Source of the DNA: an uncultured Candidatus Altimarinota bacterium
GTDB lineage: Bacteria; Patescibacteriota; Gracilibacteria; BD1-5; UBA2023
NCBI GenBank assembly: GCA_938036655.1
Contig: CALHQS010000055.1
Coordinates: 1-43,995 of the forward strand
Length of the DNA stretch: 43,995 nucleotides
Reading direction: 5' to 3'
Shown: positions 5,673 through 22,428 of the stretch, piece by piece
Numbering within the stretch: the stretch's first letter is position 1
How the letters are laid out: every line of letters starts with the position of its first letter
Made by a program: the position numbers and the translations under genes
The notes under the pieces: generated by a model
The model's input: the letters and a program-made list of their open reading frames with translations, nothing else
Told to the model about the DNA's origin: nothing
Database searches by the model: none

Positions 5673-5708
5673 ACTTTTTCATAAGGGGTAAGAGATAAAA
5701 GCAAAAAA

Positions 5709-5737
5709 AGTATAGCATATAAAAAAATAATTTGCAA
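5709..5737 (-). promoter_or_regulatory. Candidate sigma70-type promoter of the surface-protein gene (TTGCAA-N17-TATACT on the minus strand)
   Basis: -35 at 5732-5737, -10 is the reverse complement of agtata at 5709-5714, spacer 17 nt. About 40 nt upstream of the ATG at 5672. Confidence 0.4.
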
Positions 5738-5793
5738 AAATACAGCATTTTTTATGAGAAAAAGTCTCAAATCCCTTACAACTGACAAAATAA

Positions 5794-5817
5794 AAACTAT
5801 CGATTTTTTGATAGTTT
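5794..5817 (-). terminator. Hairpin aaactatc-N8-gatagttt, followed by a T-rich tract on the minus strand
   Basis: 8-bp perfect inverted repeat between the CRISPR array and the surface-protein promoter. Confidence 0.35.
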
Positions 5818-5940
5818 GAATAATGTTAGTTCAATATAAGATAATTCTGATAAAATAGCGCTTAAAAACTCTTTTTTAAAATTATTTTGAGAAAAATATG
5901 AGCAATTTTTGTAAATTTTTACAACTTTGCAAAATAAAAA

Positions 5941-5962
5941 AATCCCCTATTTTTGTGGGGGT
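5941..5962 (-). terminator. GC-clamped hairpin (cccc...ggggg) followed by a T-run on the minus strand, downstream of the CRISPR array
   Basis: Minus-strand reading is aaacccccacaaaaataggggattttttatttt. Lies about 155 nt beyond the degenerate terminal repeat. Confidence 0.4.
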
Positions 5963-6117
5963 TTATAATATTTTGAAATAAGATAAAACAACATCACACA
6001 AGAATTGGTGTTACGATAAAAAGCCAAAGTGCTACAGGTGCACTACGAAAATCAGAAAATGGTCGTGGGAGTAATCACAAAAAATCAGGGAAAAAATTTG
6101 TCATACAATAAAATATG

Positions 6118-6715
6118 ATTGGAAACAGTAGAAATTTACTAATGAAATTTGAGGAAAAAAAGATGATTAACAAGCGGATATCTACAACAGTAGAAATTTA
6201 CTAATGAAATTTGAGCACTTGGATGCAAGAAAAATAGAATAATCTACAACAGTAGAAATTTACTAATGAAATTTGAGTTATTAGTTCGAAGCGAGAAGAG
6301 TTTTTATCTACAACAGTAGAAATTTACTAATGAAATTTGAGATGAGAACAATGATACGGAATCGATCATCTACAACAGTAGAAATTTACTAATGAAATTT
6401 GAGTGCTCAAGATACTATAGGAAGTCTTGCATCTACAACAGTAGAAATTTACTAATGAAATTTGAGCTTCCCTGCTTGGCTGGTTTTCGCGCATCTACAA
6501 CAGTAGAAATTTACTAATGAAATTTGAGTTCTTTTGTGTAGTAAAGGCCACCGAATCTACAACAGTAGAAATTTACTAATGAAATTTGAGTAAGCCCGAT
6601 AAATATATGCTTGACATATCTACAACAGTAGAAATTTACTAATGAAATTTGAGTATTCCTTCTGCGGTAGGGTACCAGCATCTACAAAAGTAGAAATTTA
6701 CTAATGAAATTTGAG
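6118..6715 (-). CRISPR. CRISPR array with Cas12a/type V-A-like repeats: 10 repeats of 36 bp, 9 spacers of 26-28 bp
   Basis: Plus-strand repeat ATCTACAACAGTAGAAATTTACTAATGAAATTTGAG starts at 6118, 6180, 6242, 6306, 6368, 6431, 6493, 6555, 6618 and 6680. The minus-strand reading CTCAAATTTCATTAGTAAATTTCTACTGTTGTAGAT ends in AAUUUCUACUGUUGUAGAU. The repeat at 6118 is degenerate (4 mismatches), marking the distal end. The repeat at 6680 has one C>A change in the predicted loop. All spacers are unique. Confidence 0.95.
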
Positions 6716-6928
6716 AGCGAAAAAGTGATATTTAAGCCAAAAAGATGCAATATGCCCCCAATTGAACATAGACTTCTTGGCTTAAAATCGTTTCATAAAA
6801 AAATTAAGACTGAGGTTTGCATTCCTCCAAATGTCATTACCAAAATTTCCACCGAAGGTGTTTGTTGAATTTGGGAATGTTAAAGAACTATTGTTAGTAT
6901 ACAGAAAAATAATTTTTTGCAAATTTTT
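6716..6928 (-). promoter_or_regulatory. CRISPR leader with a candidate promoter (TTTGCA-N16-TATACT on the minus strand, 6896-6923)
   Basis: 213-bp non-coding stretch between the rsmA stop (TAG 6929-6931) and the first full repeat. Also contains the inverted repeat TAAGCCAA...TTGGCTTA (approx. 6738-6789). Confidence 0.35.
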
Positions 6929-7738
6929 CTAATTTTTCAGATTTTTCAAACAATCCAAAATCTTTTCCCAATCCTCCAAACGAATCGCTTCAGCACGAAC
7001 CTGTTCAGAATATCACAAATTTTTTAAATTCTCCAAAATTTTTTCATCAAAAATCCCAGCAGACTTGAGATTGAAGGCCAAAGTTTTTCGCGGATGTTTG
7101 AAAATCTTGTCCCAAAATTCAAGTTTTTGCAAATCAGTATCAATATCACGATTTTTTTTCGGGAAAAATTTGAGCACAATAGAATCCACTTTTGGCGCTG
7201 GATCAAAACTTTCACTCGGAACCAAGCAAATTTTTTCAATATTTTCGCATGCAAGCCACATCGCAAGCGAAAAATACGAATGTTGCGTTTTTTTACCTTT
7301 GGTGGCAAGAATTTTTTCGCCCACTTCTTTTTGCATCAGAATCACCATTTCTTCGGGTACAGCAAAATTTTGCGGATACAAAAAATGAAACAAAATCGGG
7401 CTCGTGATATAATACGGAATATTGGCAATGAGCGAATATTTTTCAAAATTTGGAGAAAATTTCAGAACATCAGCATGATGCAAAGTGATGCGATCTGAAA
7501 AATCTGCCCAATCCGTAATCATTTTTCCGCGAAGAATCGCAATCATATCAGAATCAAGTTCGACCAAATCAATTTTTTTGGGATTTTCTTGCAACAAAAA
7601 ATCCGTCAAAGCTCCGTATCACGGCCCCACTTCGACGATATTTTTTTCAGTGATTTCCGTTGCAGAACTGATAGCTATGAGCGCATCAATATCCACGAGA
7701 AAATTTTGCCCGAGTGATTTTTTGGCACGAATTTTCAT
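6929..7738 (-). CDS. rsmA: 16S rRNA (adenine1518/1519-N6)-dimethyltransferase RsmA/KsgA
   Basis: MKIRAKKSLGQNFLVD...VEVGP[TGA]YGALT (SAM motif GPGxG), then IANIPYYITSPILFHFL. A second sense TGA at 7013-7015 extends the ORF to TAG at 6929, giving a typical C-terminus (RAEAIRLEDWEKI). Confidence 0.9.
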
Positions 7739-7739
7739 A

Positions 7740-8477
7740 TTATTTTACGGCTTGACGAATATAATGAGTAATTTTGGAAGCGGAACGGAAAACAATTTTT
7801 TGATAATTGTGAAATTTTTCCAAAATCGCACGATAATTGCCCTGAATACCCTCCATATAATAACTTCGGTCATTTTCAAAACTTTTATAAATTCCCTGCT
7901 GCATCAAACTATTGCCCAGATTCATCCACGCGTTTTTCTTTTTCTGCGCCACAAGCATACAAATTTTCTGCGGATACGCGTCTGATGAAATTCCAAATTT
8001 CCGATTTTGTGAATTGGAATCCAAAAAATTGGAAATCCTAGAAAATTGACAAATCGTATCATAAAAATACGCGAGCGATTTTTGTGTCTCGTCGCCCTTC
8101 CCGAGGATGCACGAACCATACGCCTGCGTCCATGCAACCGGATCTTTATCACGATAACGCTGCAATTGCTGCATATATTGCTTTACCTTGGTATCAGCCT
8201 CATTCATGAAAAAATTGGTCGCAATATAATATGCGAGGCGTTCGTTCGTGAGCTCAACACGATCTTCAAGCGCAAATTCACCCGCTGGACACTGAAAATC
8301 TTCAATTGTATTGGAAGTGCGATTGGCACGAGCTTCCAGACACTGATCGATTTTAGAAACCACTTCATCGGCTGTTGGCTTAATTTCAGAAAAATTTGGG
8401 CATTGCGGTGCGGCTGCAAAAATATTTTGCACACCAAAAAATGAGAAAAAAATCGCGATAAAAAAAATTTTTTTCAT
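7740..8477 (-). CDS. Secreted hypothetical protein (signal peptide, several Cys)
   Basis: ATG at 8475-8477 gives MKKIFFIAIFFSFFGVQNIFAAAP. 245-aa ORF ending in TAA at 7740-7742. No family recognised. Confidence 0.6.
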   Translation of the reverse strand: MKKIFFIAIFFSFFGVQNIFAAAPQCPNFSEIKPTADEVVSKIDQCLEARANRTSNTIEDFQCPAGEFALEDRVELTNERLAYYIATNFFMNEADTKVKQYMQQLQRYRDKDPVAWTQAYGSCILGKGDETQKSLAYFYDTICQFSRISNFLDSNSQNRKFGISSDAYPQKICMLVAQKKKNAWMNLGNSLMQQGIYKSFENDRSYYMEGIQGNYRAILEKFHNYQKIVFRSASKITHYIRQAVK

Positions 8478-8478
8478 A

Positions 8479-8724
8479 TTATTTTTTTCGGTTAAAAAGG
8501 CGCGCGAAAAATCCTTTCTTGGCTGATTTTTCAGCCGTTTTTTCTGGATTTCGATTTTTTTCGTTGGCTTCATTTTTTTCGTTCGCATCGCGAAGTTTTT
8601 TCACGCCATAGAGCGACGCGACCACGCCACCCAAAACCGCACCCGTAATGACCGCGTCCATTTTTTTGATGCCGCGTTTTACCACTGCATCATCTTCCGT
8701 TTTTTTAGATTTTTTGAAAAACAT
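8479..8724 (-). CDS. Small single-pass membrane protein, hypothetical
   Basis: 81-aa ORF with one hydrophobic helix (AVITGAVLGGVVASLYGV) and a Lys/Glu-rich tail. Tightly packed between neighbouring genes. Confidence 0.5.
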   Translation of the reverse strand: MFFKKSKKTEDDAVVKRGIKKMDAVITGAVLGGVVASLYGVKKLRDANEKNEANEKNRNPEKTAEKSAKKGFFARLFNRKK

Positions 8725-8726
8725 AA

Positions 8727-9191
8727 CTAATTTTTAGTTGCATCTATTTTAATAGATTTTGAGATCAATGTCAATTTTGGAATCAAAATTGTAATCACAT
8801 TGTGTTCCACAGATGCGGAAATTTTGTCAAAAGCAAGATTTTCCGGCAAAATAATTGACCGAGAAAACGCTCCGTAAAAACATTCTTCCACAAGCATTCG
8901 GCGCGCCTCCATATAAATCGGATTTTCACGACGATTGCCAGAAATCGTCAAAATATTTCGCGAAAGGCCAATATCCACTTCCGAAGGATCAACACCCGCA
9001 ACCGGCGCTACAATGACGATAGCATCAGATAAATCAAGAATATCAACCGCGATTTGTCCAATATCCGTCTCATGATCGCGTTCCGCGTCCATTTCTACTT
9101 CGATGGCTTCGGCTTGGGAAGTCTCGATAGTACGAACTTCCATTCGTTCGCCCGATTCATTTTCATTAGAAACTCAGAAAACTTTAAACAT
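8727..9191 (-). CDS. Hsp20/alpha-crystallin family small heat-shock protein
   Basis: IAVDILDLSDAIVIVAPVAGVDPSEVDIGLSRNILTISGNR...FYGAFSRSIILPENL...VEHNVITILIPK. The start is either ATG 9191 (which needs a sense TGA) or 9143. Confidence 0.75.
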
Positions 9192-9200
9192 AATTTTTTG

Positions 9201-10286
9201 TTAGGATTTAGAAATTTTTGGATTTTTGGAAAGAATTTTTTTGAACTGCTCAAAAATTACCACTTCATCAAAAATATTTTTTTCCGGAAGATTGAAATCA
9301 TGATTTTTTTCGATTTGAGAAAAAATTTCCGACAATTTTTCCAGATGATTTGGATGAATTTTTATTGCGTGCGGATAAAAATCAAACGCGCGAATATCGG
9401 ACAAAATCATGAGCAAATCGTGCGAATTGGCAAGTTCAACATTCACTTTAGTCGTATTGTACGCTCCGACAAAAATCCACGATTTTGCCTTTTGGTAAAG
9501 CATTTCTTGCGAATGAATATCGAGAATTCCTGTGATGTGCACCCATTTTTCCAGTTTTTCGCGACGCAAAATTTCGGTCAAAAATTTAAGTGATTTGGCG
9601 GAATTTCCGTGCAAAATCAAGTGCGTTTTTCCGTGCAAATCGTGGATAAATTTTCCAAATTCATGAAGCAAAATCTCAATATTGGATTCTGATCAAAAAG
9701 TCGCATCGTACAAGAAAAAATTTTCTGGCAAATTATTTTGCGCGAATAATTGCTTATTTGGTGGGATTTTTTCTATCTCAACAAACGGCAAAATATCGAT
9801 TTTCTGTTCATGGATATTCCAGAGTTCGACGAGTTCATTACCCGCAAAAAAACTCGGCACGATAAAATGGGAAGAATTTTTGAGGAGGCGCTTGATCTCG
9901 AATTCGCGTTCTTTTCGTCGCAAAATATTGGCGTTCGTTTCGTTGTCGTAGAGCCAACGACCCATATCCATCACAAAAGTCAGCGTCGGAATACTCGAAT
10001 CATACGGCGCGTATCGCGAAAAATTGATAGCACGAAAAATCTCATTTGTGTTCGTGGAGGCAATTTTTTTAGAAGAAGAAAACCAGCCGACTGGCTTCAC
10101 ACGGAGAAAATTTTCTCATTCAGGCGCCTCCTGCTGATCAAAAATCAAAAAAGTACAAGTATCGTGCGGATTATATTTTTTCCATTTTTTCGTCCAGTTT
10201 TGCGCGTAACGGATGATTACCGCATCTTCGGGATGTCGACTTCTGATATCAACAATCAGGTGCATAGCATAAATTATTTTTCTCAT
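9201..10286 (-). CDS. Glycosyltransferase (GT-B fold, family 1/4-like)
   Basis: Three track ORFs (9201..9671, 9693..10100, 10116..10304) share one frame and are joined by two sense TGAs. The C-terminal domain resembles GT1 (THLILHGNS...WVHITG...YQKAKSWIFVG). Confidence 0.65.
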
Positions 10287-12502: not shown

Positions 12503-12588
12503 AATCGGGATTGGAATTATTTTAGGAGTTTTTCATTATTTGTCAAATGAGAAATAAAAAAAGCCAACAAATGTTGGCCAGCAAATTT

Positions 12589-12789
12589 TTAAAAATTAAA
12601 AAATTCAGAAAAAGCACATATTATGGCCAAAATCCCAAGAATTTTTCCGGTGATGTTTTTGGCAACAAATATATAAATAACGCCCATTGTCAAGACGAAT
12701 ATGGCGGAAAATTGAAACATTATAATGATAATTCCTATCAAAAATAATGCCAAAATCCACCAAATCTTGCTTTGATTTTGATAGAGCAT
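12589..12789 (-). CDS. Small (66 aa) two-helix hydrophobic protein, paralog of 12901..13104
   Basis: ATG at 12789 preceded by GGGAG-N6. MLYQNQSKIWWILALFLIGIIIIMF...GKILGILAIICAFSEFFNF. Followed by the hairpin gccaac-N4-gttggc plus T-run. Confidence 0.55.
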   Translation of the reverse strand: MLYQNQSKIWWILALFLIGIIIIMFQFSAIFVLTMGVIYIFVAKNITGKILGILAIICAFSEFFNF

Positions 12790-12900
12790 AATTTTCTCCC
12801 AATCAAATTTCTGACAAAAATATTTTAATTGAGAAAATAAAATTGTCAATTAAAATATTGAAAAAGAAAAAGCCGGAAAATTCCAGCTTTGAGAAAATCT

Positions 12901-13104
12901 TCAAAAATTAAAAATTTTCCCGAGGATTCCAATCACGAGCAAAGCGACGACTATTCTGGCGAACAGCGTCTTCACTCGAGAAAGGAACCAAATTGCAATC
13001 ACCAACGCCACCCAAAATGGCTTGATTGGCAACATAATGAACCCAATGAGCAACAACATTGGCATACACAAAATAATGAATGTCCATTTGAGAAATGTAA
13101 GCAT
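12901..13104 (-). CDS. Small (67 aa) two-helix hydrophobic protein, paralog of 12589..12789
   Basis: ATG at 13104 preceded by GAGGAG-N5. MLTFLKWTFIILCMPMLLLIGFIML...VALLVIGILGKIFNF. Shares the C-terminal FNF with its paralog. Confidence 0.55.
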   Translation of the reverse strand: MLTFLKWTFIILCMPMLLLIGFIMLPIKPFWVALVIAIWFLSRVKTLFARIVVALLVIGILGKIFNF

Positions 13105-13194
13105 TTTCGCTCCTCTTTCAGGAAAAATTGATGACACGAGCATTTTGCCATAAAAAATAAAAATGTCAAGGAGTTTTCATCGAAAAAATCCATA

Positions 13195-13244
13195 TTGCGA
13201 ATTTTCGCAAAAAATTTGAATTTTCAAAAAAATATGCTATACTC
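13195..13244 (+). promoter_or_regulatory. Promoter (TTGAAT-N17-TATACT) overlapped by two palindromes, TTGCGAATTTTCGCAA and TTTGAATTTTCAAA
   Basis: Palindromes at 13195-13210 and 13214-13227. -10 at 13239-13244, 26 nt before the ATG of the first fur-family gene. Confidence 0.4.
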
Positions 13245-13269
13245 TTCGGGTTATTTTAAAATTTTGAAT

Positions 13270-13641
13270 ATGACTGATACTCGCATTACGCGGCCGCGAC
13301 GGATTTTTGTCGAATATATTGGAACGGTTGGAAAATCCACTTTTACTGATCTCAAAGCGAATCTTGTAGGAAAATGAGAAGACAAAATGGACCTGACGAC
13401 ACTCTATCGAATGATTGAAATTTTCAAAAGTCAGGGCCTCATCCACGAAGTGAAACACCAAAATGAACGAATTGTTTTCTTGGTGACGGACGATTTTAAT
13501 CCAAATCGCGACAGCGTAGAAATCTCGATTTGTGAAAATTGTGGAAATATCGAGACAATTTATGAGCCGCTTCCGCCAAATTTCACGGCCCGATCAATCG
13601 AAAATCGCCTCAAATCTTGTGATAAATGCGTTATTCTCTAA
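13270..13641 (+). CDS. Fur-family metalloregulator (paralog 1)
   Basis: Track ORFs 13195..13377 and 13387..13641 are in one frame, joined by a sense TGA at 13375-13377. Winged-helix segment TLYRMIEIFKSQGLIHEV. C-terminal CENCG...CDKC metal-site pairs. Confidence 0.75.
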
Positions 13642-13664
13642 TCCCTTTCTGAAGGGATTTTTTG
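13641..13664 (+). terminator. Intrinsic terminator atccctt-tctg-aagggat plus T-run
   Basis: Starts at the last base of the TAA stop (13639-13641) of fur paralog 1. Confidence 0.7.
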
Positions 13665-13929
13665 ATGGAAATTTTGGATTTGTCAAAAATAAAATTTCGC
13701 GCGAAATGATTTTTTTGTTTGCAAATTATTGGAAAGATCTTTTGTAAAAAACTTGCATGTGCAAAAGTCTTGTCCTGGAGAAAATCACATCATTTCCTGT
13801 TATAGTAGAAAAAAAATTGCCCGGAATGGCAACCCCAAAAAATCCGGAGCGAAGCGATTTTTTTGCAAATTACATCATTATTGGAATGTTTGACAGAAAT
13901 TTAAAAAATAAATTTTCTTGTAAAAAAAC

Positions 13930-13956
13930 TTGCATTTGCAGAAAAATGCATATAAT
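13930..13956 (+). promoter_or_regulatory. Promoter TTGCAT-N15-TATAAT with embedded TGCA-N6-TGCA dyad
   Basis: -35 at 13930-13935, -10 at 13951-13956, 30 nt before the ATG of fur paralog 2. A partial copy of the same module lies at about 13700-13767. Confidence 0.45.
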
Positions 13957-13986
13957 AATTTTTGCAAAGTTAAAAAATAAAAAAAT

Positions 13987-14334
13987 ATGTTGTCAACAAT
14001 TCATCAAAGAAATATTTTGGAAATGTTTCAAAAAGAAAAATCAATTTCATTAGATGATTTAAAAAATCGCTTTGTAGAGCCGAAAATAATGAATCAAACG
14101 ACCCTGTATCGAATTCTAGAACGCTGGAAATCTGAAAAAATGATTTATGAAATCGAAGTTGAGAAAAAGCGGATTTTTATGCTTTGTGATCATCATCACG
14201 AAAACGAGGGCATCCAGATTTCGTATTGCAAAAGTTGTGAAAATGTTCAGGAATCGCATTTTCCACTTCCAGAAAACGCGGAGTACGCCGAAACAGTGCA
14301 ATTCCTCAAAAAATGTGAACATTGTGAAAAATAA
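13987..14334 (+). CDS. Fur-family metalloregulator (paralog 2), first gene of the operon
   Basis: 115 aa. TLYRILERWKSEKMIYEI, HHHENEG, CKSCENV...CEHCEK. Only 9 nt separate it from the next gene. Confidence 0.75.
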   Translation: MLSTIHQRNILEMFQKEKSISLDDLKNRFVEPKIMNQTTLYRILERWKSEKMIYEIEVEKKRIFMLCDHHHENEGIQISYCKSCENVQESHFPLPENAEYAETVQFLKKCEHCEK

Positions 14335-14343
14335 TTTTTTTGT

Positions 14344-15582
14344 ATGAATATTTCAGAAAATCTTAAAAAAAATCTACGAAAAATCCTTATCGAGGATGAA
14401 ATCGAGGCCATCAGCGTCGTCAATCCTGAACAATTTGAGAAAAATATTGAAAATTTTGAAAAAATTCTTGAAGAAAATCGTCTCAAATACGCGATTCATT
14501 CAGTTTTGAAAGTCAATCATTCGAATGCTCTGCTTGGCGTTGCGAAATCGAAAAATCTGCGCGCGGATGTGTCGTCAATAGGAGAACTCAATCAGGCGCT
14601 TGCAATGGGATTTTCGGGCGAAAATATCACGAGCAACGGCCCAAAAAATCGAAAATTTCTGAACAAAAGTATCGAAATCGGCGCAACCATCGCAGTGGAT
14701 AGTATTGAGGAACTTGAAAAAATCACAAAAATTGCCAGCGAAAAAAATCAAAAAATCTCGATTATTCCGAGGCTCAGTGCATTCAAAGATGCACCCCACG
14801 CGCGCTTTGGAATCGCAAAATGGCTTTGGAATCTTGCGATCAATATTATCGAAAAAAATCGTGAAAATCTCGATGTTTTAGGCTATCATTTTCATATCGA
14901 TACTCTTGATGTGAATGCGAGAATTGATATTTTTTGGGAAAGTATTGAATTTTACAAAAAATTGCTCGCGATTGGATTTGCGCCAAAAATTATTGATATT
15001 GGCGGTTCGTATGGTACTTTTTACCAAAATGACAGCATTAAGAACTTTGGAAACTCTGGAATTGAGCATCAAAAAATGTATCAAAATCCTGAATATGCTG
15101 GTGAAAAATCTTTGGAACAAATTTTAACAAAAACAAGTCCAGGGAAGCCTGCCATCAAAGATTTTTTCCGCGAAAATAATATCACACTTTGGATTGAACC
15201 TGGAAGGTCGCTTTTGGGAAATAATGTCGGTTTTGTCGCGACGACAGTGCTCGGGACGCGCGAAGACAGCCTCATCGTGAATACACATTCTTTTGCACTG
15301 GGAATGCGCGAGGAAGAATTACCGACCAATCCGATTCTCGTAGACGATGCGTACGGCGAGAAAAATAATTTTTATTATTTTTTGGGAAATTTATGTCTTA
15401 GGAGTGATATAATATATTCCCGAAATATCGGTTTTGCACGAAAAGTTCATGAAAATGACATTATTATTTTTCCAAATATGGCAGCATATCATATGGATTT
15501 TTATGAAACAGAAAGCATCGCTCATCCTAAAAAAGTAAAATTTTTTGAGGATAAAAATGGCGATTTGGCACGCGATTTCTAA
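14344..15582 (+). CDS. Fold-type III PLP-dependent decarboxylase (Orn/DAP/Arg decarboxylase family, SbnH-like)
   Basis: 412 aa. HSVLKVN (PLP-Lys context), ADVSSIGELNQAL, GYHFHIDT, IDIGGSYG and EPGRSLLGN match the family's signature positions. Confidence 0.75.
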   Translation: MNISENLKKNLRKILIEDEIEAISVVNPEQFEKNIENFEKILEENRLKYAIHSVLKVNHSNALLGVAKSKNLRADVSSIGELNQALAMGFSGENITSNGPKNRKFLNKSIEIGATIAVDSIEELEKITKIASEKNQKISIIPRLSAFKDAPHARFGIAKWLWNLAINIIEKNRENLDVLGYHFHIDTLDVNARIDIFWESIEFYKKLLAIGFAPKIIDIGGSYGTFYQNDSIKNFGNSGIEHQKMYQNPEYAGEKSLEQILTKTSPGKPAIKDFFRENNITLWIEPGRSLLGNNVGFVATTVLGTREDSLIVNTHSFALGMREEELPTNPILVDDAYGEKNNFYYFLGNLCLRSDIIYSRNIGFARKVHENDIIIFPNMAAYHMDFYETESIAHPKKVKFFEDKNGDLARDF

Positions 15583-15593
15583 TTTTTATTTTT

Positions 15594-16295
15594 ATGAATA
15601 CACCGCAAAATAACAAAAAGATCGAAGAATTTTCCGACGAAATGGGAAATACTTTTATACCAATTTCTAATATTACTAATTTTATCAAGATGCAAACAAA
15701 TGATATTCTTCCCAAAGAGAAAGTTTTACCCGCTCAAAAAAAACCAAATATCACTATGACACAAAATAATATTCTTCTCAACAAAAACACGCCAACACCT
15801 AAACAATGAGCGCAAGACAAAACGCCAACACCTAAAGAATGGGCGCAAGGCGAAACTGAGAAAAAAATCAGCCACGAAGCAAAAATTCAAAAAGAGCAAT
15901 TTTTGAAACAATATTTTGAAATGGATGTGGACGCGACGCAAAATCGCCCAAATATCAAAAATGTTAATCTCGATGACGAAAATGCTATTTTTCAATTTGC
16001 CGCATTACAAAACATCGCGTGTGCGTTTAGTTGTTGTATTGATACAACAACTCCTGGTAGAATCGAGGAAATTGGGAAAATTTTTCAAGGGAAAAATGAC
16101 GGAAAATTTGTGCATTTTGTAATTTATCCAAGCCCAAAATGGGGCGCAATTAAGTTACAAAACCCAAAAGAAGCACTCGCATATTTTGAGGTTTACCTCA
16201 AAGACGAACCGCAAAATGATGCTGAAAAAGCTGATGTTATGGCACAATTTCGCACACTTTCTCACACTGTAAAAAATCAAAATGATCATCAATAA
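15594..16295 (+). CDS. Hypothetical 233-aa protein with an in-frame 33-nt tandem duplication
   Basis: Track ORFs 15594..15809 and 15903..16295 are one frame joined by a sense TGA at 15807-15809. TPTPKQ[TGA]AQDK / TPTPKEWAQGE. No family recognised. Its last 14 nt overlap the start of the next gene. Confidence 0.55.
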
Positions 16296-17550
16296 TATCC
16301 AAGAAGTTATCGGAAATACACCACTTTTTCTGATTCCAGAAAAAATCCACGGCATCAAGGGGCTCGAATTGTATGCAAAATGTGAATTCTTGAACCCGTT
16401 CGGTTCAGTCAAAGATCGCACTGCGATGGGACTCCTTCGTGAAGCGAAAAACTACGAATATATCATTGAATCCTCGAGCGGAAATACTGCGAAGGCTCTA
16501 GGGATTTTGGCGAGTGTTCAGGGGAAAAAATTGCTCGATGTCTCAAATAAAATACATCTACAAGAAGTCGAAGATATTATCAAAATTATTGGAACAGAAA
16601 TCAAAAGTCTGCCGGCTGGTTCAGAGTGTCCCGACCCAACTAATCCAAATTCTCCACTCAAAGCCATCAATCGGATTATGAGTGAAAACCCTGGAAAATA
16701 TTATTATACGGATCAATTTTCTAATACAGGAAATCCAAAAATTCACGAAGAAACAACCGCCAAAGAAATTGATGATGATATCGGAACGCCAGATTTTTTC
16801 TTTGCAGGACTCGGAACAACCGGCTCCAGTAAAGGAATCCGTGATTATTTTGCAAGCCGCGGAAATATGCAAAGTATTGGTATCATCACAGCAGGACATT
16901 CGTATTTACCAGGTATTCGCAACAGCCAAGAAATGTTTGAAGTTGGGCTTTTTGACCCAAAACTCTACGCAGATTTTAGTGAAGTAGATGAGCAAAACGC
17001 GATTGACTACATGCTCGTACTTATCAGGAAATGTGGTCTCCTCGTGGGACCAACTTCTGGTGCTACATTTTTTGGTGCGATTCAATATTTCAAAAAACAA
17101 AATCCTGAAGATCTTATTGGGAAAAAGGCGGTTTTTATCGCTTGTGATCGCTTGGAGTCGTACACTGGATATTTACGAGAAAAACGAAAATCTCTTTTTG
17201 AAGAAGAAATTTTGGAAACAATTCCAAAAAATTCAGAAAAAATCGCAGTCCAGACAATCGAAAATATTGAAGAAAATTCTGGCGAAATCCTCGTGGATAT
17301 GCGAAGTTATGTTTCGTACGATCTTGGGCATATTAAGGGAAGTCTCAATTTTCCATTCGAGGATCTCAGAAAATATCTAGCGAGCGATTATTTGCCGTTT
17401 CCCAAGGAATCGAAAATTATTTTTATTTGTCCGTTTGGCGAAGAATCCGCGATTTTGGCGGAAATGTGAGCCAAGCTCGGATATAACGCCAGTTCGCTTG
17501 CTGGCGGATTTCTAGAATTTAGAGAAAAATTTCCTGAAAAAATTGTGTAA
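16282..17550 (+). CDS. CysK/CysM/SbnA-like PLP enzyme fused to a C-terminal rhodanese domain
   Basis: GNTPLF...EFLNPFGSVKDRTA...SSSGNTAKAL...GLGTTGSS...GPTSGA (cysteine-synthase fold). After about residue 320: VDMRSYVSYDLGHIKGSLNFP...FICPFGEESAILAEM[TGA]AKLGYNASSLAGGF (rhodanese). The sense TGA at 17467-17469 extends the ORF to TAA at 17550. Confidence 0.75.
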
Positions 17551-17566
17551 ATTTTGGCAATTTTCT

Positions 17567-17594
17567 TTGAAAAAATCGCGTTTTGTGTTACAAT
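17567..17594 (+). promoter_or_regulatory. Possible internal promoter TTGAAA-N16-TACAAT
   Basis: In the only sizeable intergenic gap (50 nt) of the operon, just upstream of the ATG at 17601. Confidence 0.35.
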
Positions 17595-17600
17595 GCGAGC

Positions 17601-19088
17601 ATGAAAAAATTTTTACTCATTCTCGCGTTATTGTTCGCATTTTTTGGAAATATTTTTGGAGCGCTCGCCTGCGCGTTGCCGCCCGATATTTTGCACGAAT
17701 TTCGCATCGATGCCTCTCAAAATCCTGTCAAAATCGAGTATTCACTGATGGCTTGGGAAAATCTCAAACCGCAAGTTCTCTCGACACTTGAAAATAATTC
17801 TCATGCGAAAATTTCGGAAAATTTTGAAAAAATTCTCGAAGAAAATATTACACAAAATGCACATTTTTCTTTTGATGGCACGCCTTTTTCGCTCAAATTT
17901 TTAAGTGGATCGGTTGTTGAAAATACCGAAAATGAGCCTGGAAATTATTTACCAAATCCAATTCTGAAAGCCACTTTTTCGACGGATATTTCGGTAGATT
18001 GGGAGAAAATCAATACTTTCTCGCTTGATTTTAACAAAAAACCGCTGCTCGATATTTCGCCGTTAATTCATCCATATATCGCGACAACAATGCAGAATCC
18101 GCAAGGATATCAGGGCTATGTGATGGACGCCAATGGAAAAATCTGGGATTTATACATACATAATTCGCAAAAAATCGTCATCAAAAGTGAATTCACGGAA
18201 GAGGCTGAAATCAATCATTTTGCGCTTTCGTTCGGACGAGAAAATGATACTTTCGTGAATCCCAACGATACGCGAACGACTACCCCACGCGCTTCTGTTC
18301 CGGATAAACTCAGCAACCCAAATGCTGAGACTATCGATCTTTTCCAACCTGGGCAAACGCTCAAAAATTTTCTTGACAACAATACAGGTTTTGGCCTCAA
18401 AATCGTGGGAATCGTGGTGGCATTGCTCGCAGGGATGGCGCACGGACTATTGCCGGGACATTCCAAAAGCTTGCTCGTAGGATATGTTTCAAATAGCGGA
18501 AGACTCCGTAAAAATGAAATTTTCACTATCATTGCTGGCGTGACTTCTTCGCATACGATGTTTATTTTTCTCTTGGCAATTGTCATTATTGTTCTAGAAA
18601 AATGAACCAGCTTTTCAGCTCAGTTGACGGAAAAATTCGGCGCTGGATTGTATATGATTTTTGGAATTTTTTTCGCGTGGCAAGCCATCAAATTTTTTAG
18701 AAAAAAATCAGATAATTTTGCTAATTTTGGCCGAAATCCACTCAAAAATTCTCTCGAAAATCATCCAAGCAACTGCGCGTGTTGTCAGACGGGAAATACC
18801 AAAAATGCCTTAATGGTGGGACTTTTGGCGGGGCTCGTTCCTTGTATCGATGCGCTAGCGCTTTTTGTTTTTGCGATTGGAATCGGCAATGTGTGGTATT
18901 CTTTTTTCATTATTATCGCATTTTCGCTCGGGCTCGGCTTGATGCTCGCAATCATCGCCTTTTCCCTTTCGTCTGGGAAAAATTTTCTTCACAAAATCGG
19001 ACCAAATTTTGCCAACAATTTTTCTAATTTTTTGACGCTTTTGGCAGGGATTTTTCTCATTGTGATGGGACTTTCTAAAATTTTTTAA
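17601..19088 (+). CDS. Fusion of a secreted/periplasmic domain (DUF1007-like?) and a NicO/RcnA-type (COG2215) metal permease
   Basis: Signal peptide MKKFLLILALLFAFFGNIFGALA, a soluble domain of about 250 aa, then TM helices with GMAHGLLPGHSKSLLVGY and GLLAGLVPCIDALALF. Track ORFs 17583..18605 and 18624..19088 are in frame across a sense TGA at 18603-18605. Confidence 0.65.
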
Positions 19089-19097
19089 AATATTTTT

Positions 19098-20060
19098 ATG
19101 ACAACAAAAAAAATTCCAATTACGATTTTGACAGGTTTTCTTGGAAGCGGAAAAACGACACTTCTCAATCATATTTTGAAAGGAAATCACGGCCTTAAAA
19201 TCGCGGTGGTAGAAAATGAATTTGGGCAAGCGGGGCTTGATGGTGCACTCATCAAGGCAGAATCAACTGAGGAAATCATCGAGGTTTCGAATGGTTGTCT
19301 TTGTTGTATGGTTCGAAAAGATTGGATGGATGCGATTGAGACACTTCTGAATTCTGGAAAAGAAATTGATGCCATCGTGATTGAGGCCAGTGGCGCAAGT
19401 GAACCGCTTCCTATCGCGCAAAGTTTTTTGATGAATGATATGGATGGGCGCGTGCAATTGGATTCGATCATTTGTCTAATTGATGCACTCAATTATGAAA
19501 ATTTGTTCGCGCAAGATGCCAAAATCGCGCTTGAACAATTGGAATTTGCAGATTTTATCGTGATGAACAAAATTGATTTGGTCGATCAAGAAAAGAAAAA
19601 TTTTCTCACGACGGCAATTCGTCGCGTGAATGCGTTTGCACCAATTATTGAAGCAGAACACGGAAAAGTAAATATCGACCTCCTGTTGGGAACTGGGCGA
19701 TTTTCGCTTACTGATGCGATGGAAGAAAAAAATAATACACCACACCAGCATGCTCACGACGATTTGGAAACATTTGAATATACTGCACGCGGAAAATTTT
19801 TCGTGCAAAAAATGGATGCATTTTTTCAGGATTTGGACAATGATTGTTACCGCGTAAAGGGATTTGTGCAGTTTGTTGAAAAGCCCGATACTTGGTATTT
19901 GATTCAAAAAGCGGGCGCGCGTGTGACGATGGAGCCTTGGGAAGGTGATGCACCAGGAAAATCTCGTCTTATTTTTATCGGGCGAAATTTTAAGATTCCG
20001 CTTATCACCAAACTTCTTGATGATTGTTCGGACGCACCGAAATCAGTTTTATTTATGTAA
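19098..20060 (+). CDS. COG0523 (CobW/YjiA/ZigA-type) G3E metallochaperone GTPase
   Basis: Walker A GFLGSGKTT, metal motif NGCLCC, NKIDL, His-rich HQHAHDD linker, CobW C-terminal domain. Confidence 0.85.
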   Translation: MTTKKIPITILTGFLGSGKTTLLNHILKGNHGLKIAVVENEFGQAGLDGALIKAESTEEIIEVSNGCLCCMVRKDWMDAIETLLNSGKEIDAIVIEASGASEPLPIAQSFLMNDMDGRVQLDSIICLIDALNYENLFAQDAKIALEQLEFADFIVMNKIDLVDQEKKNFLTTAIRRVNAFAPIIEAEHGKVNIDLLLGTGRFSLTDAMEEKNNTPHQHAHDDLETFEYTARGKFFVQKMDAFFQDLDNDCYRVKGFVQFVEKPDTWYLIQKAGARVTMEPWEGDAPGKSRLIFIGRNFKIPLITKLLDDCSDAPKSVLFM

Positions 20061-20069
20061 TTTCCAAAA

Positions 20070-20423
20070 ATGTTTGGCAAAAATATGGACGACATTCACG
20101 ATTTTTTAGAAGGAAATAAAATTAAAATTTTGTACATTGGGACGCGGTTTTGCTCAACTTGCCAAGCACTTTTTCCAAAAATTGAAGAACTCGCAAAAAA
20201 TCTGGATTTTGTGAATCTCATGCGCGTAGAAATTGATGAAGTGCGCGAAGTTGCGAGCGCGTTTCAGGTTTTGAGTGCACCGACAATTCTCGTTTTTCAC
20301 AACAAAAAGGAATATTTTCGCTCATCGCGATATACTCGAATGGAAGAATTTTCTGAAAAAATTATCGCGCTAAAACCCCTCACTGAAGGGAAAAATTATT
20401 TTTCTGACGAAAATATTTCATAA
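20070..20423 (+). CDS. Thioredoxin-fold protein (CSTC active-site-like motif)
   Basis: 117 aa. ILYIGTRFCSTCQALFP...VLSAPTILVF is a typical thioredoxin-like topology. Confidence 0.6.
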   Translation: MFGKNMDDIHDFLEGNKIKILYIGTRFCSTCQALFPKIEELAKNLDFVNLMRVEIDEVREVASAFQVLSAPTILVFHNKKEYFRSSRYTRMEEFSEKIIALKPLTEGKNYFSDENIS

Positions 20424-20446
20424 AAAATCCCCGTTTTGGGGATTTT
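20424..20446. terminator. Bidirectional terminator aaaatcccc-gttt-ggggatttt between the operon and convergent uvrC
   Basis: Perfect stem flanked by an A-run and a T-run. Confidence 0.75.
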
Positions 20447-20452
20447 ATTTTC

Positions 20453-22428
20453 TTAAACAAGTCCATGATCACGAAGTGTCTCTAATTGTTTTTTGTTCAC
20501 GATTTTGAGAATTTCCGTCTCGTCGAGATTTTTGATCTCATCAATGGAACCAGCAATTTTGAGCAATTTTTTGCGCGTCGTTGGGCCGATGCCTGGCAGT
20601 TCTTCCAAAACATTTTTTTTCATAGATTTTCCGCGAGCGCTGCGGTTTGCCGTAATCGAAAACCTGTGTGATTCATCGCGCGCTTTCTGGATCACCATCA
20701 ACTCGGGCGTTCATTTTTCGAACAAAATCGGATTTTTTTGTCCTGGCAAAAAAACTTCCTCTTCCCTTTTGGCAAGGGAACAAAGTCCCACATCGCCACC
20801 CAGAATTTCCGAAATTTGACGCCATTTCGCATCTAAATGCTCACTTTTTTCTGACAAAAATTTTTTAAGTTTTTCAGGATTATTTTCAGCGAAAAATTTT
20901 TCAATTCCAAGAGAAATCCCTTCCAAGGCTGATGAAAGCTGTCATTTTCCCCCATCAATGATAATTAAATTGGGGAAATTTCCCTGCGAAAGTCCCTCCA
21001 TCGTTCGGCGCATCATCACTTCTTGATGCGATGCAAAATCATCGATTTCACCAGCGCGAAGCGATTTTATTTTATATTTTTTATAATTATCCGTATCGGG
21101 TTTTCCATTTTTTATCACCACACGACTCGCATACGTAAATTGTCCGTGCGTGTGAGAAATATCATAACATTCAAAAAAAATCGGTCATTTTTTGGGGATA
21201 GAATATTTCAATCGCTCTAAAATTTGCTCCATATGGCCGCGCGTAAGCGTATTATTTTCAAGCAAATGCCAATTTTTTTTTTGGGCCAATAAACTACTAG
21301 TCCAGTCTTTATCAATAACAGCAGCTCTATTATCGTAAAATCCAAAAGTTCTTTTTTGGTGCCGATTTGTGGCATCAAAATCTGAATTTTTTTCATTTGC
21401 AAAAATGCTTCCAAAATTTCATCGTCAAAATTTTTTTCGACCAACAAAATTTTGGGAATATCAGCAAAATCATCACTATATTGTCGCACCAAAAATTGTG
21501 AAAAAACCTCCGAAATCGTCGCTCATTTAGCATCCACACTTGAACGAAAAACGCCGATAATTTTCCCATCACGAACGCTTGTCAGGCCGACAAAAATCTG
21601 ATTATATTTTTCCAAAATCACGCACGCATCCACATCGCCATCCACCATATCGCGCGCAATTTGTCGCTCAGAAAACATCTCGATGGCCGCAATTTCTTCT
21701 TTGATTTTTTGTGCTTTTTCAAATTCAAGATTTTTCGCAAAAATCTGCATTTTTTCTCGTAGATTTTCTAGAATTTTATTGGTTTTTCCTGACAAAAATT
21801 CTTGTAAATGAGAAATATTTTGATTGTGTTCGTTGATATTTTCCCTTTTCAAAAGGCACGGCGCCGGACAAATCCCGATATAATAGTCCATACACGGCAC
21901 GCCGCGACCAGCCTTATCCGTGATTGTGATTTTCCCACCAATATCAGAAAATTTCATCTTGCACGCACGAATTTTGAACATTCGCCTGAGTGATTTAATA
22001 TTTTCCGAAAGATTCATTCCCTGCGTAAAAGGCCCAAAATATTTGGCGCCATCATTGATTTTTTGACGCGTTTTGATAAGTTCTGGAATTTTTCCTGTCG
22101 TGATTTTGAGATACGAAAGATTTTTGTCATCCTTCATCAAAATATTATATTTTGGCGAAAAATGCTTAATCAAATTGGTTTCTAGCACTAGCGCTTCAAC
22201 TTCCGTCTGACACAAAATCGTCTCAATATCCACAATTTGTCCGACCATATTTCGCTTTGCAACGGTCAAATCTTGCCCTTCACGAAAATACGAACTCACA
22301 CGCGAACGCAAGTTTTTTGCCTTTCCTACATAAATAATTTTCCCCGTTTTATCCTTCATCTGATATACTCACGGCGTTTTCGGAAGGTTTTGCAAAATAT
22401 GGGCGATGTGCTCAGAAATTTTTTTCAT
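20453..22428 (-). CDS. uvrC: Excinuclease ABC subunit C, with an apparent 1-nt frameshift near 21331-21348
   Basis: N-terminus MKKISEHIAHILQNLPKTP[TGA]VYQMKDKTGKIIYVGKAKNL (GIY-YIG). Middle FFECYDISHTHG and IIIDGGK[TGA]QL. C-terminus IQKARDESHRF and LEELPGIGPTTRKKLL (HhH). The N-terminal part (21523.., 21217..) and the C-terminal part (20711.., 20453..) are in different frames. Confidence 0.8.

Follow-up and report, generated by a model that had tools for sequence, protein, structure and literature searches.

The region between positions 13,195 and 20,452 of a contig from an uncultured Candidatus Altimarinota bacterium (CALHQS010000055.1, analysed over 43,995 nucleotides (nt), which we refer to as "the window") holds an operon that is led by a regulator gene of the Fur family and that encodes two enzymes dependent on pyridoxal phosphate (PLP): a decarboxylase of fold-type III, and a CysM/SbnA-like fusion of a PALP domain with a rhodanese domain, here called the PALP-rhodanese enzyme. 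Our analysis suggests that the region is a metal-responsive operon, and that the two enzymes may make a sulfur-containing ligand by which a thiophilic metal is captured, buffered or delivered; we favour this explanation tentatively, giving it somewhat less than an even chance. It draws on the structure of the genes, the catalytic residues of the two enzymes, their phylogenetic position, their conserved pairing and their recurring linkage with metal-related genes, from which a sulfur relay, a product, a metal and a direction of regulation are proposed.

An earlier note on this DNA, made from its letters alone, had read the operon as a candidate metallophore or metal-starvation island, in which the two enzymes would correspond to SbnA and SbnH of the staphyloferrin B pathway. 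That interpretation is partly supported: the metal-linked pair of the SbnA/SbnH type is right, while the carboxylate product based on diaminopropionate is probably not.

Catalytic residues and ancestry of the enzyme pair

The decarboxylase is recognised by Pfam as Orn_Arg_deC_N (E = 1e-22), with no match to the C-terminal Orn_DAP_Arg_deC domain, and its invariant residues, i.e. K56, H184, the EPGR motif at 285-288, C351, D355 and Y382, form the complete catalytic set of the fold-III enzymes. The PALP-rhodanese enzyme is matched by PALP (E = 8e-37) and by Rhodanese (E = 8e-12; 45.9 bits, with a cutoff of 22.2); its PALP domain retains the PLP lysine (K44), the SSGN motif at 65-68, Q145, the phosphate loop and a short, CysM-like PGIR motif at 210-213. 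Two further residues of the fusion enzyme are invariant cysteines: C383 of the rhodanese domain, conserved in 16 diverse members and located in a loop of the form C-P-x-G-E/D-x-S, and C116, located inside an SECPDP insertion that is confined to the PALP-rhodanese clade. At the Q145 position, most PALP-rhodanese members carry Gln-Tyr and the enzyme of the window carries Gln-Phe; in SbnA, the residues that select O-phosphoserine are Arg132, Tyr152 and Ser185 (PMC12414870).

In the comparison with curated profile models, neither enzyme has reached a cutoff: the decarboxylase scores 82.6 bits with the LysA model (TIGR01048, cutoff 297.9), and the PALP-rhodanese enzyme scores 129.2 bits with the SbnA model (cutoff 349.95), a higher 140.8 bits with the generic cysKM model, and 117-141 bits with the CysK/CysM models (TIGR01136, TIGR01138 and TIGR01139, cutoffs 344-394).

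The position of the two enzymes has been further explored with neighbour-joining trees (200 bootstraps). The rhodanese-fused PALP domains form a clade with 100% support, sister (98%) to the SbnA-like enzymes of two biosynthetic clusters, L084 and L085, with CysM and CysK of Escherichia coli outside; a 100% clade unites the decarboxylases with those of the same two clusters and leaves out E. coli LysA and the LysA-like proteins. By these trees, the PALP-rhodanese enzymes appear as a sister group of the SbnA-like enzymes, and not as members of that family. Since the two enzymes do not cluster with LysA, CysK or CysM, and since the order of their genes is kept well outside the circle of near relatives (see below), the outcome that the earlier note had named as refuting its reading has not arisen, and its label "SbnA/SbnH-like" is right as a statement of ancestry.

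The same observations bear on the simplest alternative, i.e. that ordinary LysA and CysK/CysM genes happen to lie amid metal-homeostasis genes. The top NCBIfam names of the two enzymes (lysA and cysKM) would agree with a coincidental neighbourhood, but the scores fall 3- to 4-fold under the curated cutoffs, the enzymes fall into well-supported clades of their own, distinct from LysA, CysK and CysM of E. coli, the pairing is kept across bacteria and archaea, and spacings of 9-11 nt together with one overlap mark a single operon; we consider this alternative effectively refuted.

Comparison with the carboxylate metallophore pathways

The two reference clusters of the trees show the context in which these relatives occur. 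Cluster L084 holds a decarboxylase relative of 29% identity within a cluster for a siderophore of the type made independently of nonribosomal peptide synthetases (NIS), next to genes for IucA/IucC, a TonB-dependent receptor, HpcH/HpaI, MFS and FecCD proteins; its PALP enzyme is free of a rhodanese domain and has SbnA as its top NCBIfam model. Cluster L085 places another decarboxylase relative in a natural-product-like setting. With the dehydrogenase of L084 as the query, no match has been found in the window or in the Gracilibacteria loci.

In SbnA and SbnH, as in the window, a fold-II PLP enzyme of the beta-replacement type is co-transcribed with a fold-III decarboxylase in a metal-related cluster under Fur-family control; SbnA couples O-phosphoserine and glutamate, and SbnH is a PLP decarboxylase (PMC12414870). 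The enzyme of the window differs from SbnA in its fused catalytic rhodanese domain, in the additional invariant C116 and in its predicted nucleophile, which would be sulfur instead of the amine of glutamate, while the lineages that carry the pair differ from the SbnA/SbnH clusters by a SufS-like partner in most of them. SbnA works together with SbnB, an NAD-dependent dehydrogenase from the ornithine cyclodeaminase family that its own cluster encodes, and a siderophore decarboxylase of the SbnH type takes as its substrate a citryl-amino acid supplied by the NIS synthetase of its cluster. In agreement with the earlier note, which had seen neither an NIS synthetase nor an SbnB homolog, our searches of the window and of the related Gracilibacteria loci have found no SbnB, no NIS synthetase (IucA/IucC), no SbnG and no exporter, by which the window differs from the staphyloferrin B pathway as a whole. 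The cluster for [S,S]-ethylenediaminedisuccinate ([S,S]-EDDS), the second precedent of the earlier note, reportedly contains SbnA-, SbnB- and decarboxylase-like enzymes; the window has no SbnB-like or lyase-like enzyme, and nothing in the EDDS cluster is known to correspond to its rhodanese and its proposed sulfur relay.

A carboxylate metallophore of the staphyloferrin B or [S,S]-EDDS kind, built on diaminopropionate or diaminoethane and condensed by the operon's protein of 233 amino acids (aa), would be in line with the sister relation of the pair to the SbnA/SbnH-like pairs, with the relative in the IucA/IucC cluster, with the documented roles of SbnA and SbnH, and with the zinc-repressed, Zur-controlled biosynthesis of the chelator [S,S]-EDDS in Amycolatopsis japonicum (PMC6103462). 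Against it stand the missing dehydrogenase, synthetase, SbnG and exporter genes, the score of the SbnA model at about a third of its cutoff (129 bits against 350), the rhodanese domain, which is universally fused and whose cysteine is invariant, the SufS-like enzyme as the usual partner, and the 233-aa protein itself, which among the lineages examined is limited to loci of Gracilibacteria and Peribacteria and which resembles a metal-binding protein. The invariant C383 and C116 and the SufS-like partner indicate sulfur transfer in the place of the chemistry of staphyloferrin B or EDDS, and we regard a carboxylate product as quite improbable.

Another known route can be compared with the proposed sulfur chemistry: in Mycobacterium tuberculosis, CysM works with a protein-bound sulfur donor, the thiocarboxylate of CysO. 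The enzyme of the window is likewise of the CysM type, with the short P-G-I-R loop, and its rhodanese persulfide could act as a protein sulfur carrier; it differs from the CysO/CysM route in that the carrier would be the persulfide of a fused rhodanese and not a ThiS-like thiocarboxylate, in that the enzyme is paired with a decarboxylase and linked with metal genes, and in that the CysM models remain under their cutoffs. The bacterial coenzyme M pathway (XcbA-E) has been considered and rejected: its enzymes, i.e. a ComA-like synthase, two enzymes of the fumarase superfamily, a desulfhydrase-like PLP enzyme and a [2Fe-2S] protein (PMC9457059), have no counterpart as a set among the domains of the operon.

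Distribution of the pair and its metal-related partners

The scan of species representatives of the Genome Taxonomy Database (GTDB) has returned 477 relatives of the decarboxylase, which places such relatives in at least 477 species-level genomes; the loci of the best 80 have been fetched. In the loci first looked up around the decarboxylase, a PALP-rhodanese gene always comes after it. The decarboxylase and the PALP-rhodanese enzyme are adjacent in nearly all of these 80 loci, which come from Gracilibacteria, Peribacteria, Nocardia, Nocardioides, Actinoplanes, Nanohaloarchaea, a gammaproteobacterium and Bdellovibrionales, and they are also adjacent in metagenome loci; the adjacent pair spans Actinobacteria, Proteobacteria, Gracilibacteria (of the Candidate Phyla Radiation, CPR) and Nanohaloarchaea (of the DPANN archaea), the latter two being reduced episymbionts. 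Two further genomes of oral Gracilibacteria carry the same operon, with proteins that are 86-99% identical. The nearest public genomes are those of "Candidatus Gracilibacteria bacterium GN02-873" and an oral metagenome-assembled genome (MAG). The decarboxylase family close to the query comprises 82 clusters, and the fusion enzyme occurs in at least 2,967 protein clusters, under generic names throughout ("pyridoxal-phosphate dependent enzyme", "cysteine synthase B"); NCBIfam holds no dedicated model for the fusion, and the module of decarboxylase and PALP-rhodanese enzyme is nowhere described in the literature that we have searched.

Variations on the arrangement also occur. One locus from the Bdellovibrionales (L032) carries two PALP-rhodanese paralogs on opposite strands (1510-2793 and 8254-9537), less than 8 kb apart. 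In four metagenome loci (L093, L099, L108 and L114), the PALP-rhodanese gene does not adjoin a fold-III decarboxylase. Its neighbours in L093 encode a CooC-like ATPase and two enzymes, i.e. a flavin amine oxidase and an S-adenosylmethionine (SAM) methyltransferase; L099, L108 and L114 share the order PALP-rhodanese, SufS-like, CooC-like. A six-gene variant (L086, L107, L109, L111 and L113) consists of an Asp/Arg-hydroxylase-like oxygenase, a 520-aa protein, a CooC-like ATPase, the decarboxylase, the PALP-rhodanese enzyme and a SufS-like enzyme. The tailoring enzymes of these variants, i.e. the flavin amine oxidase, the SAM methyltransferase and the Asp/Arg-hydroxylase-like oxygenase, fit a small-molecule product.

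The linkage of the pair with metal-related genes holds across three unrelated lineages. In the Gracilibacteria, the pair is accompanied by a Fur-family regulator, one or two COG0523 GTPases and a NicO-like permease, to which some loci add a CooC-like ATPase; in locus L003, from a lineage that uses code 11, Fur, cobW, two CooC-like ATPases and a SufS-like enzyme are found with the pair, with a ZIP transporter nearby. In the Nanohaloarchaea, the order is a divergent NikR, a cobW-like GTPase, an uncharacterised gene, a CooC-like ATPase, the decarboxylase, a second uncharacterised gene and the PALP-rhodanese enzyme. In the Actinobacteria, a SufS-like gene and a gene that we refer to as "gene X" precede the pair; in the product of gene X, a domain of 345 aa is joined to a CopZ-like HMA domain, a fusion that is present in 66 of 66 actinobacterial loci, and the search of its N-terminal domain against the sequences of the Protein Data Bank (PDB) has given no match. 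In two actinobacterial loci, a regulator of the MerR family follows the pair. Across the fetched loci, the SufS-like enzyme is the commonest additional partner, present in most of them. In a gammaproteobacterial MAG (L028), genes for two membrane proteins flank the pair (9385-9849 and 13886-14497): one protein is small and has a tail rich in His and Cys, HADHGDHATSHPCC, and the other belongs to DUF5134.

The CooC-like ATPases of the other lineages match the structure of CooC (E = 3e-16) and carry an invariant Cys-Tyr-His motif, which is placed where we take the metal-binding CXC motif of CooC to be. They differ from CooC in the motif itself (C-Y-H instead of C-X-C) and in that no CO dehydrogenase is located nearby; in the window, such ATPases are absent. 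In the reciprocal search of metagenomes, which starts from this CooC-like subfamily, the pair or a SufS-like gene adjoins in 20 of the 33 closest loci, while the more distant CooC-like proteins are never found beside either. Close CooC-like genes also occur without the pair, at about 3500-7100 of four loci: in L110, next to a divergent Fur-family regulator and a paralog of ribosomal protein S4, in L112 and L120, where the layout of the open reading frames (ORFs) is that of L110, and in L116, where it is similar. The context of Fur and the S4 paralog at L110 has the pattern of a zinc-starvation regulon.

As to the metal, several candidates are suggested by the partners. Zinc is hinted at by COG0523, by Zur as the weak best match of the first Fur paralog of the window, by the ZIP transporter of L003 and by the context of Fur and the S4 paralog; nickel or cobalt by NikR, by the CooC-like ATPases and by the RcnA-like permease; copper or another soft metal by the CopZ-like domain and by MerR in the Actinobacteria. 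An assignment to zinc is not supported, as the signs for nickel or cobalt weigh equally. A ligand with sulfur and nitrogen donors would suit zinc, nickel, cobalt and copper alike.

These partners also give rise to the main rival of the ligand explanation, i.e. that the pair and its sulfur relay set no free ligand loose, and that the sulfur, or a fragment containing it, would instead end up in a metal-sulfur centre bound to a protein or in a new metal cofactor, which the P-loop chaperones (COG0523, CooC-like) and the metal-binding partners (HMA fusion, Cys2-His protein) would assemble or insert. Up to three NTPases of the SIMIBI/G3E type accompany the pair (in L003), the CooC-like ATPases are similar to the protein that inserts nickel into CO dehydrogenase, a version of the cluster under NikR control exists, the pair has no conserved exporter, and the trafficking of sulfur to cofactors usually begins with a SufS-like enzyme and a rhodanese. 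On the other hand, no client metalloenzyme is conserved beside the cluster in any lineage examined, an invariant and catalytically complete decarboxylase is hard to account for by the delivery of sulfur alone, and the tailoring enzymes of the variants suggest a small molecule; we hold the maturation of a metal centre to be unlikely, with roughly one chance in five.

The pair could alternatively belong to a metal-sparing or stress metabolism, as a second route to cysteine, persulfide or sulfide, or as a sulfur salvage route, induced together with the metal-starvation or metal-stress regulon, for instance so that pools of thiols and iron-sulfur clusters are protected or restored. For a CysK-like enzyme, membership in a metal regulon has a precedent in the copper-responsive cysK2 of M. 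tuberculosis, and a Fur-family regulator and an S4 paralog adjoin the related CooC-like genes; moreover, Zur regulons often hold metabolic paralogs (PMC6103462, PMC2770081). The metal-sparing explanation leaves the obligatory decarboxylase, the constant HMA partner of the Actinobacteria and the dedicated CooC-like subfamily unexplained, and the organism is auxotrophic for amino acids, its genome being reduced (PMC6282201); we judge this explanation improbable.

Genetic code and layout of the operon

When genes are called with translation table 11, the gene of the first Fur paralog (fur1), the gene of the 233-aa protein, the PALP-rhodanese gene and the permease gene are each broken up; these calls have been replaced by calls with code 25. 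Translation with table 4 or 25 doubles the total length of open frames, with all genes of the region ending at TAA, and the four genes, which carry in-frame UGA codons at 13375, 15807, 17467 and 18603, are whole only when UGA is read as sense. We read UGA as glycine, i.e. the window uses genetic code 25, because in GlmS and PNPase of the window all three UGA codons that can be aligned are located opposite a glycine of the E. coli proteins, and because in a relative of the decarboxylase that has been translated with tryptophan in the database, W occupies invariant glycine columns. In practice, code 25 is needed to read the operon at all. Oral Gracilibacteria with a GC content of about 37%, code 25 and many auxotrophies have been described (PMC6282201).

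With UGA as a sense codon, the gene positions, the spacers and the terminators are those given by the earlier note, and its layout of one tightly packed operon, led by a Fur-family gene and preceded by a separately terminated fur paralog, is reproduced by the spacers and the hairpins. The features of the region are as follows, all on the plus strand.

13270-13641, plus strand: fur1, 123 aa, monocistronic
13640-13659, plus strand: terminator-like hairpin that ends fur1, an 8-bp stem followed by a T run
13987-14334, plus strand: fur2, 115 aa, the first gene of the operon
14344-15582, plus strand: PLP decarboxylase of fold-type III, 412 aa
15594-16295, plus strand: 233-aa protein, with no match in Pfam, NCBIfam or the PDB
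16282-17550, plus strand: PALP-rhodanese fusion, CysM/SbnA-like, 422 aa
17601-19088, plus strand: RcnA/NicO-like permease, 495 aa
19098-20060, plus strand: COG0523 (G3E family) GTPase, 320 aa
20070-20423, plus strand: thioredoxin-like protein, 117 aa, the last gene of the operon
20424-20446, plus strand: strong intrinsic terminator that closes the operon, a 10-bp stem with four GC pairs followed by a T run

The spacers between the genes of the operon are, in order, 9, 11, -14 (an overlap), 50, 9 and 9 nt, and we regard the genes as a single operon because of the spacings of 9-11 nt and the overlap. The Pfam domains of the region are FUR (twice), Orn_Arg_deC_N, PALP with Rhodanese, cobW with CobW_C, and Thioredoxin, in line with the domain calls of the earlier note except for the permease, for which its NicO and DUF1007 calls find no Pfam match. 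In NCBIfam, no protein of the operon attains the curated cutoff of any specific family. Of the partners seen in other lineages, neither a CooC-like nor a SufS-like gene, nor an NIS synthetase or other partner, has been found in the window.

Accessory proteins of the operon

By its hydropathy, the permease is predicted to combine a signal or anchor segment with about six transmembrane segments and with an extracytoplasmic domain of about 240 aa, and it carries a Cys-rich loop, NHPSNCACCQTGN. The RcnA subfamily model of NCBIfam gives E = 1.7e-9 (37.3 bits, with a cutoff of 195), and the sole Pfam match is DsbD_2 (E = 2.8e-6), with no match to NicO or DUF1007; the motif HGLLPGHSKS of the permease may be set beside what we take to be the RcnA/NicO signature, H-x4-P-G-H-[GS]-K. 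For the periplasmic domain, the search of PDB sequences has returned no relative. In the more distant Gracilibacteria clusters, the permease is kept at 33-36% identity.

The COG0523 GTPase exceeds the Pfam cutoffs for both cobW (181.8 bits) and CobW_C (59.1 bits), and it carries the Walker A motif GFLGSGKTT, the GCLCC motif (CxCC), NKID and a His-rich stretch; the CobW and ZigA models reach about 191 bits, under their equivalog cutoffs, and ZigA, CobW and YjiA all remain below theirs. The thioredoxin-like protein has a CSTC motif and passes the Pfam cutoff for Thioredoxin (43.3 bits, cutoff 23.5), while the canonical thioredoxin equivalog is not attained (46.8 bits, cutoff 96.8); among the relatives, it is present in L004 and L005 only, i.e. 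in the oral lineage.

The window resembles the Zur and Nur regulons in uniting a Fur-family regulator, a GTPase with the CxCC motif and a metal permease, and differs from them in the unusual extracytoplasmic domain of the permease, in its Cys-rich and not His-rich loop, and in the presence of biosynthetic enzymes in the operon. The earlier note had counted both COG0523 and transporters of the NicO/DUF1007 type among the classical members of these regulons; this stands for COG0523 as a member of the Zur regulon (PMC2770081, PMC6103462), while NicO/DUF1007 is unmentioned in Haas et al. 2009.

The 233-aa protein has given no match to Pfam, to NCBIfam or to PDB sequences. Its orthologs are located between the decarboxylase and the PALP-rhodanese enzyme, in Gracilibacteria and Peribacteria only among the fetched loci, and its family comprises 21 representative clusters among 1.84 billion proteins. 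The protein has a conserved N-terminus, a hypervariable linker of repeats and a C-terminal domain, to which all four family-invariant residues belong (N140, C143, C147 and H174). A structural model computed with AlphaFold from a shallow alignment had a pLDDT of 46 and was discarded; with a deeper alignment, a usable model was obtained, with a pLDDT of 84 overall and above 93 in the C-terminal domain, for which the Foldseek search against the PDB has found no structural relative. Several candidate homologs have been rejected for lack of significant BLAST similarity, namely the 201-aa and 163-aa proteins of the Nanohaloarchaea, the uncharacterised proteins of L028 and gene X of Nocardia. The suggestion of the earlier note that this protein supplies new chemistry is not borne out, as the protein is not conserved in the system as a whole and resembles a metal-binding protein of the Cys2-His type, and not a condensing enzyme; we describe it as a putative, lineage-specific Cys2-His metal-binding accessory, and it may stand in for the HMA fusion of the Actinobacteria.

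The linker (15700-15870) is built of hypervariable tandem TPTPKQ-x-AQGE units, and the length of the protein among closely related strains varies from 195 to 241 aa. In the linker of the window, one repeat unit carries UGA (Gly) where the neighbouring unit carries UGG (Trp).

Fur paralogs and regulatory DNA

Both paralogs are assigned to the Fur family by their Pfam scores with FUR (40.5 bits for fur1 and 28.8 bits for fur2, with a cutoff of 23.1). The fur1 protein has two CxxC pairs and one UGA (Gly) codon, at 13375; its best NCBIfam match is Zur (23.5 bits, with an equivalog cutoff of 167), and it is 42-44% identical to the Fur protein that heads the cluster in more distant Gracilibacteria. 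The fur2 protein has an HHHE motif and two CxxC pairs, is 36% identical to fur1 and has no match to the Zur equivalog model; among the loci of the relatives, it is confined to the oral lineage.

The operator palindromes mentioned by the earlier note are present. A perfect palindrome of 16 nt, TTGCGAATTTTCGCAA, is located at 13195-13210, just upstream of a promoter-like site of fur1 (-35 at 13216, with the -10 element ending at 13243); this is its sole exact copy in the 44-kb window, and the enrichment test is not significant. The spacer between fur1 and fur2 (13660-13986) holds three more palindromes, AATTTCGCGCGAAATG at 13693-13708, TTGCATGTGCAA at 13753-13764 and TTGCATTTGCAG at 13930-13941, the last of which overlaps the -35/-10 elements of the fur2 promoter (TATAAT at 13951-13956). 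Sites resembling AATTTCGCGCGAAATT are mildly enriched (2 of 100 shuffles), yet the additional sites fall in coding sequence. All of these palindromes are kept here as candidate operators, because enrichment cannot be demonstrated within 44 kb.

The spacer between fur1 and fur2 is more conserved than the genes on either side of it: over the stretch 13620-14000, which includes the spacer, the identity with two other genomes is 94%, while the proteins of these genomes differ by 9-14%. Rfam has found no riboswitch or small RNA in the spacer, its only match overall being one tRNA. Within 13700-13960, two copies of a promoter-like block, TTTGCAAATTA...TTGTAAAAAACTTGCAT-NN-GCA, are found, and between them a hairpin (13813-13836) that resembles a terminator when read on the minus strand. 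The spacer may hold a small RNA or a complex operator. A further promoter-like site, at 17567-17594 in the 50-nt gap before the permease gene, consists of TTGAAA, 16 nt and TACAAT with an extended TG (10 of 12 matches), and is a possible internal promoter.

Neighbouring features of the window

The remainder of the window is housekeeping in character, with no client metalloenzyme. Directly upstream of fur1, two small hydrophobic ORFs of 80-86 aa are located on the minus strand (12589-12849 and 12901-13143), with terminator-like hairpins after them (12562-12579 and 12869-12890). On the other side of the operon, uvrC (20453-22428, minus strand) is divided into two overlapping frames of 427 and 340 codons, with the junction near 21217-21232, while in two related genomes it is one intact frame of 673-678 codons; uvrC of the window is frameshifted, as either a pseudogene or an assembly error. 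A di-iron protein of the ScdA/RIC type (DUF542 and hemerythrin domains) is encoded at 36004-36726, 16 kb off the operon; elsewhere in bacteria, such proteins repair damaged iron-sulfur clusters. A surface protein of 1,294 aa, with a right-handed beta-helix and a G5 domain, is encoded on the minus strand at 1788-5672, where the GC content rises to 41%, from 31-33% on either side.

A proposed sulfur route and the points against it

In the explanation that we favour, fur2 would act as a repressor that autoregulates the operon, with fur1 as a second paralog upstream, and the metal would be imported and allocated by the RcnA/NicO-type permease, with its large outward-facing domain and Cys-rich loop, and by the COG0523 GTPase. 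The two enzymes, which we regard as an ancient and widespread pair, would work in sequence. C383 of the rhodanese domain would carry persulfide sulfur, loaded in most lineages by the SufS-like desulfurase; in the window, the thioredoxin-like protein would probably recycle the cysteine pair of C116 and C383. The fused PLP domain would make an aminoacrylate from a serine derivative and trap the sulfur on it, giving an S-substituted alanine, from which the decarboxylase would strip the carboxylate, leaving an N,S ligand of the 2-aminoethyl-thiol type (e.g. cysteamine) or a related thioether amine. Together with the co-encoded metal-binding proteins, i.e. the Cys2-His protein and COG0523 in the window, and the CooC-like ATPases or the CopZ-like fusion in other lineages, the ligand would capture, buffer or hand over a scarce thiophilic divalent metal, with zinc or nickel as the likeliest. 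A persulfide relay that feeds a beta-replacement enzyme is proposed because of C383 in the fused rhodanese, C116, the SufS-like partner and the thioredoxin-like gene, and we infer the two later steps by analogy with the roles of SbnA and SbnH.

Several points weigh against this explanation. The trees have few outgroups, and their SbnA/SbnH references have been chosen by context and are not the Staphylococcus aureus proteins, with the true SbnH left out. The window has no SufS-like gene to supply the sulfur. To take sulfur from cysteine in order to make cysteine or cysteamine seems wasteful, and the real acceptor may therefore differ. A secreted metallophore is not supported, since the surroundings of the pair conserve neither an exporter nor a dedicated importer for the ligand. 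The assignment of the permease to NicO/RcnA, with its low scores, is the weakest of our calls. The motif TTGCA-NN-TGCAA is not enriched in the window, where 27 of 100 shuffles attain the observed count. Lastly, the families of the regulators vary (Fur-family, NikR, MerR and PucR), and most Nocardia loci have no adjacent metal sensor; the logic of starvation or excess may therefore differ by lineage.

A broader claim can also be made, i.e. that the pair, usually together with the SufS-like enzyme, provides the biosynthetic core for a metal ligand or metal cofactor that contains sulfur and has so far gone unrecognised, and that the pair is served by dedicated metal-binding partners: the CooC-like subfamily with the Cys-Tyr-His motif, COG0523, the CopZ-like fusion and the Cys2-His protein of new fold. 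We give this claim less weight than the explanation for the window, and regard it as rather unlikely.

Implications

If the sulfur-containing ligand is real, a very common fusion enzyme belongs to an undescribed metal-handling pathway, and its rhodanese domain shows how a fusion can rewire the building-block logic of the SbnA/SbnH siderophore enzymes toward sulfur chemistry. Nocardia and Nocardioides could serve as tractable hosts in which to study the product, the metal and the new subfamily of CooC-like chaperones. The Gracilibacteria and the Nanohaloarchaea have lost most of their biosynthesis and yet keep the pair, which suggests that it is important for the supply of metal in a host-associated or symbiotic life; for the organism of the window, the withholding of zinc or nickel in the mouth is a possible setting.

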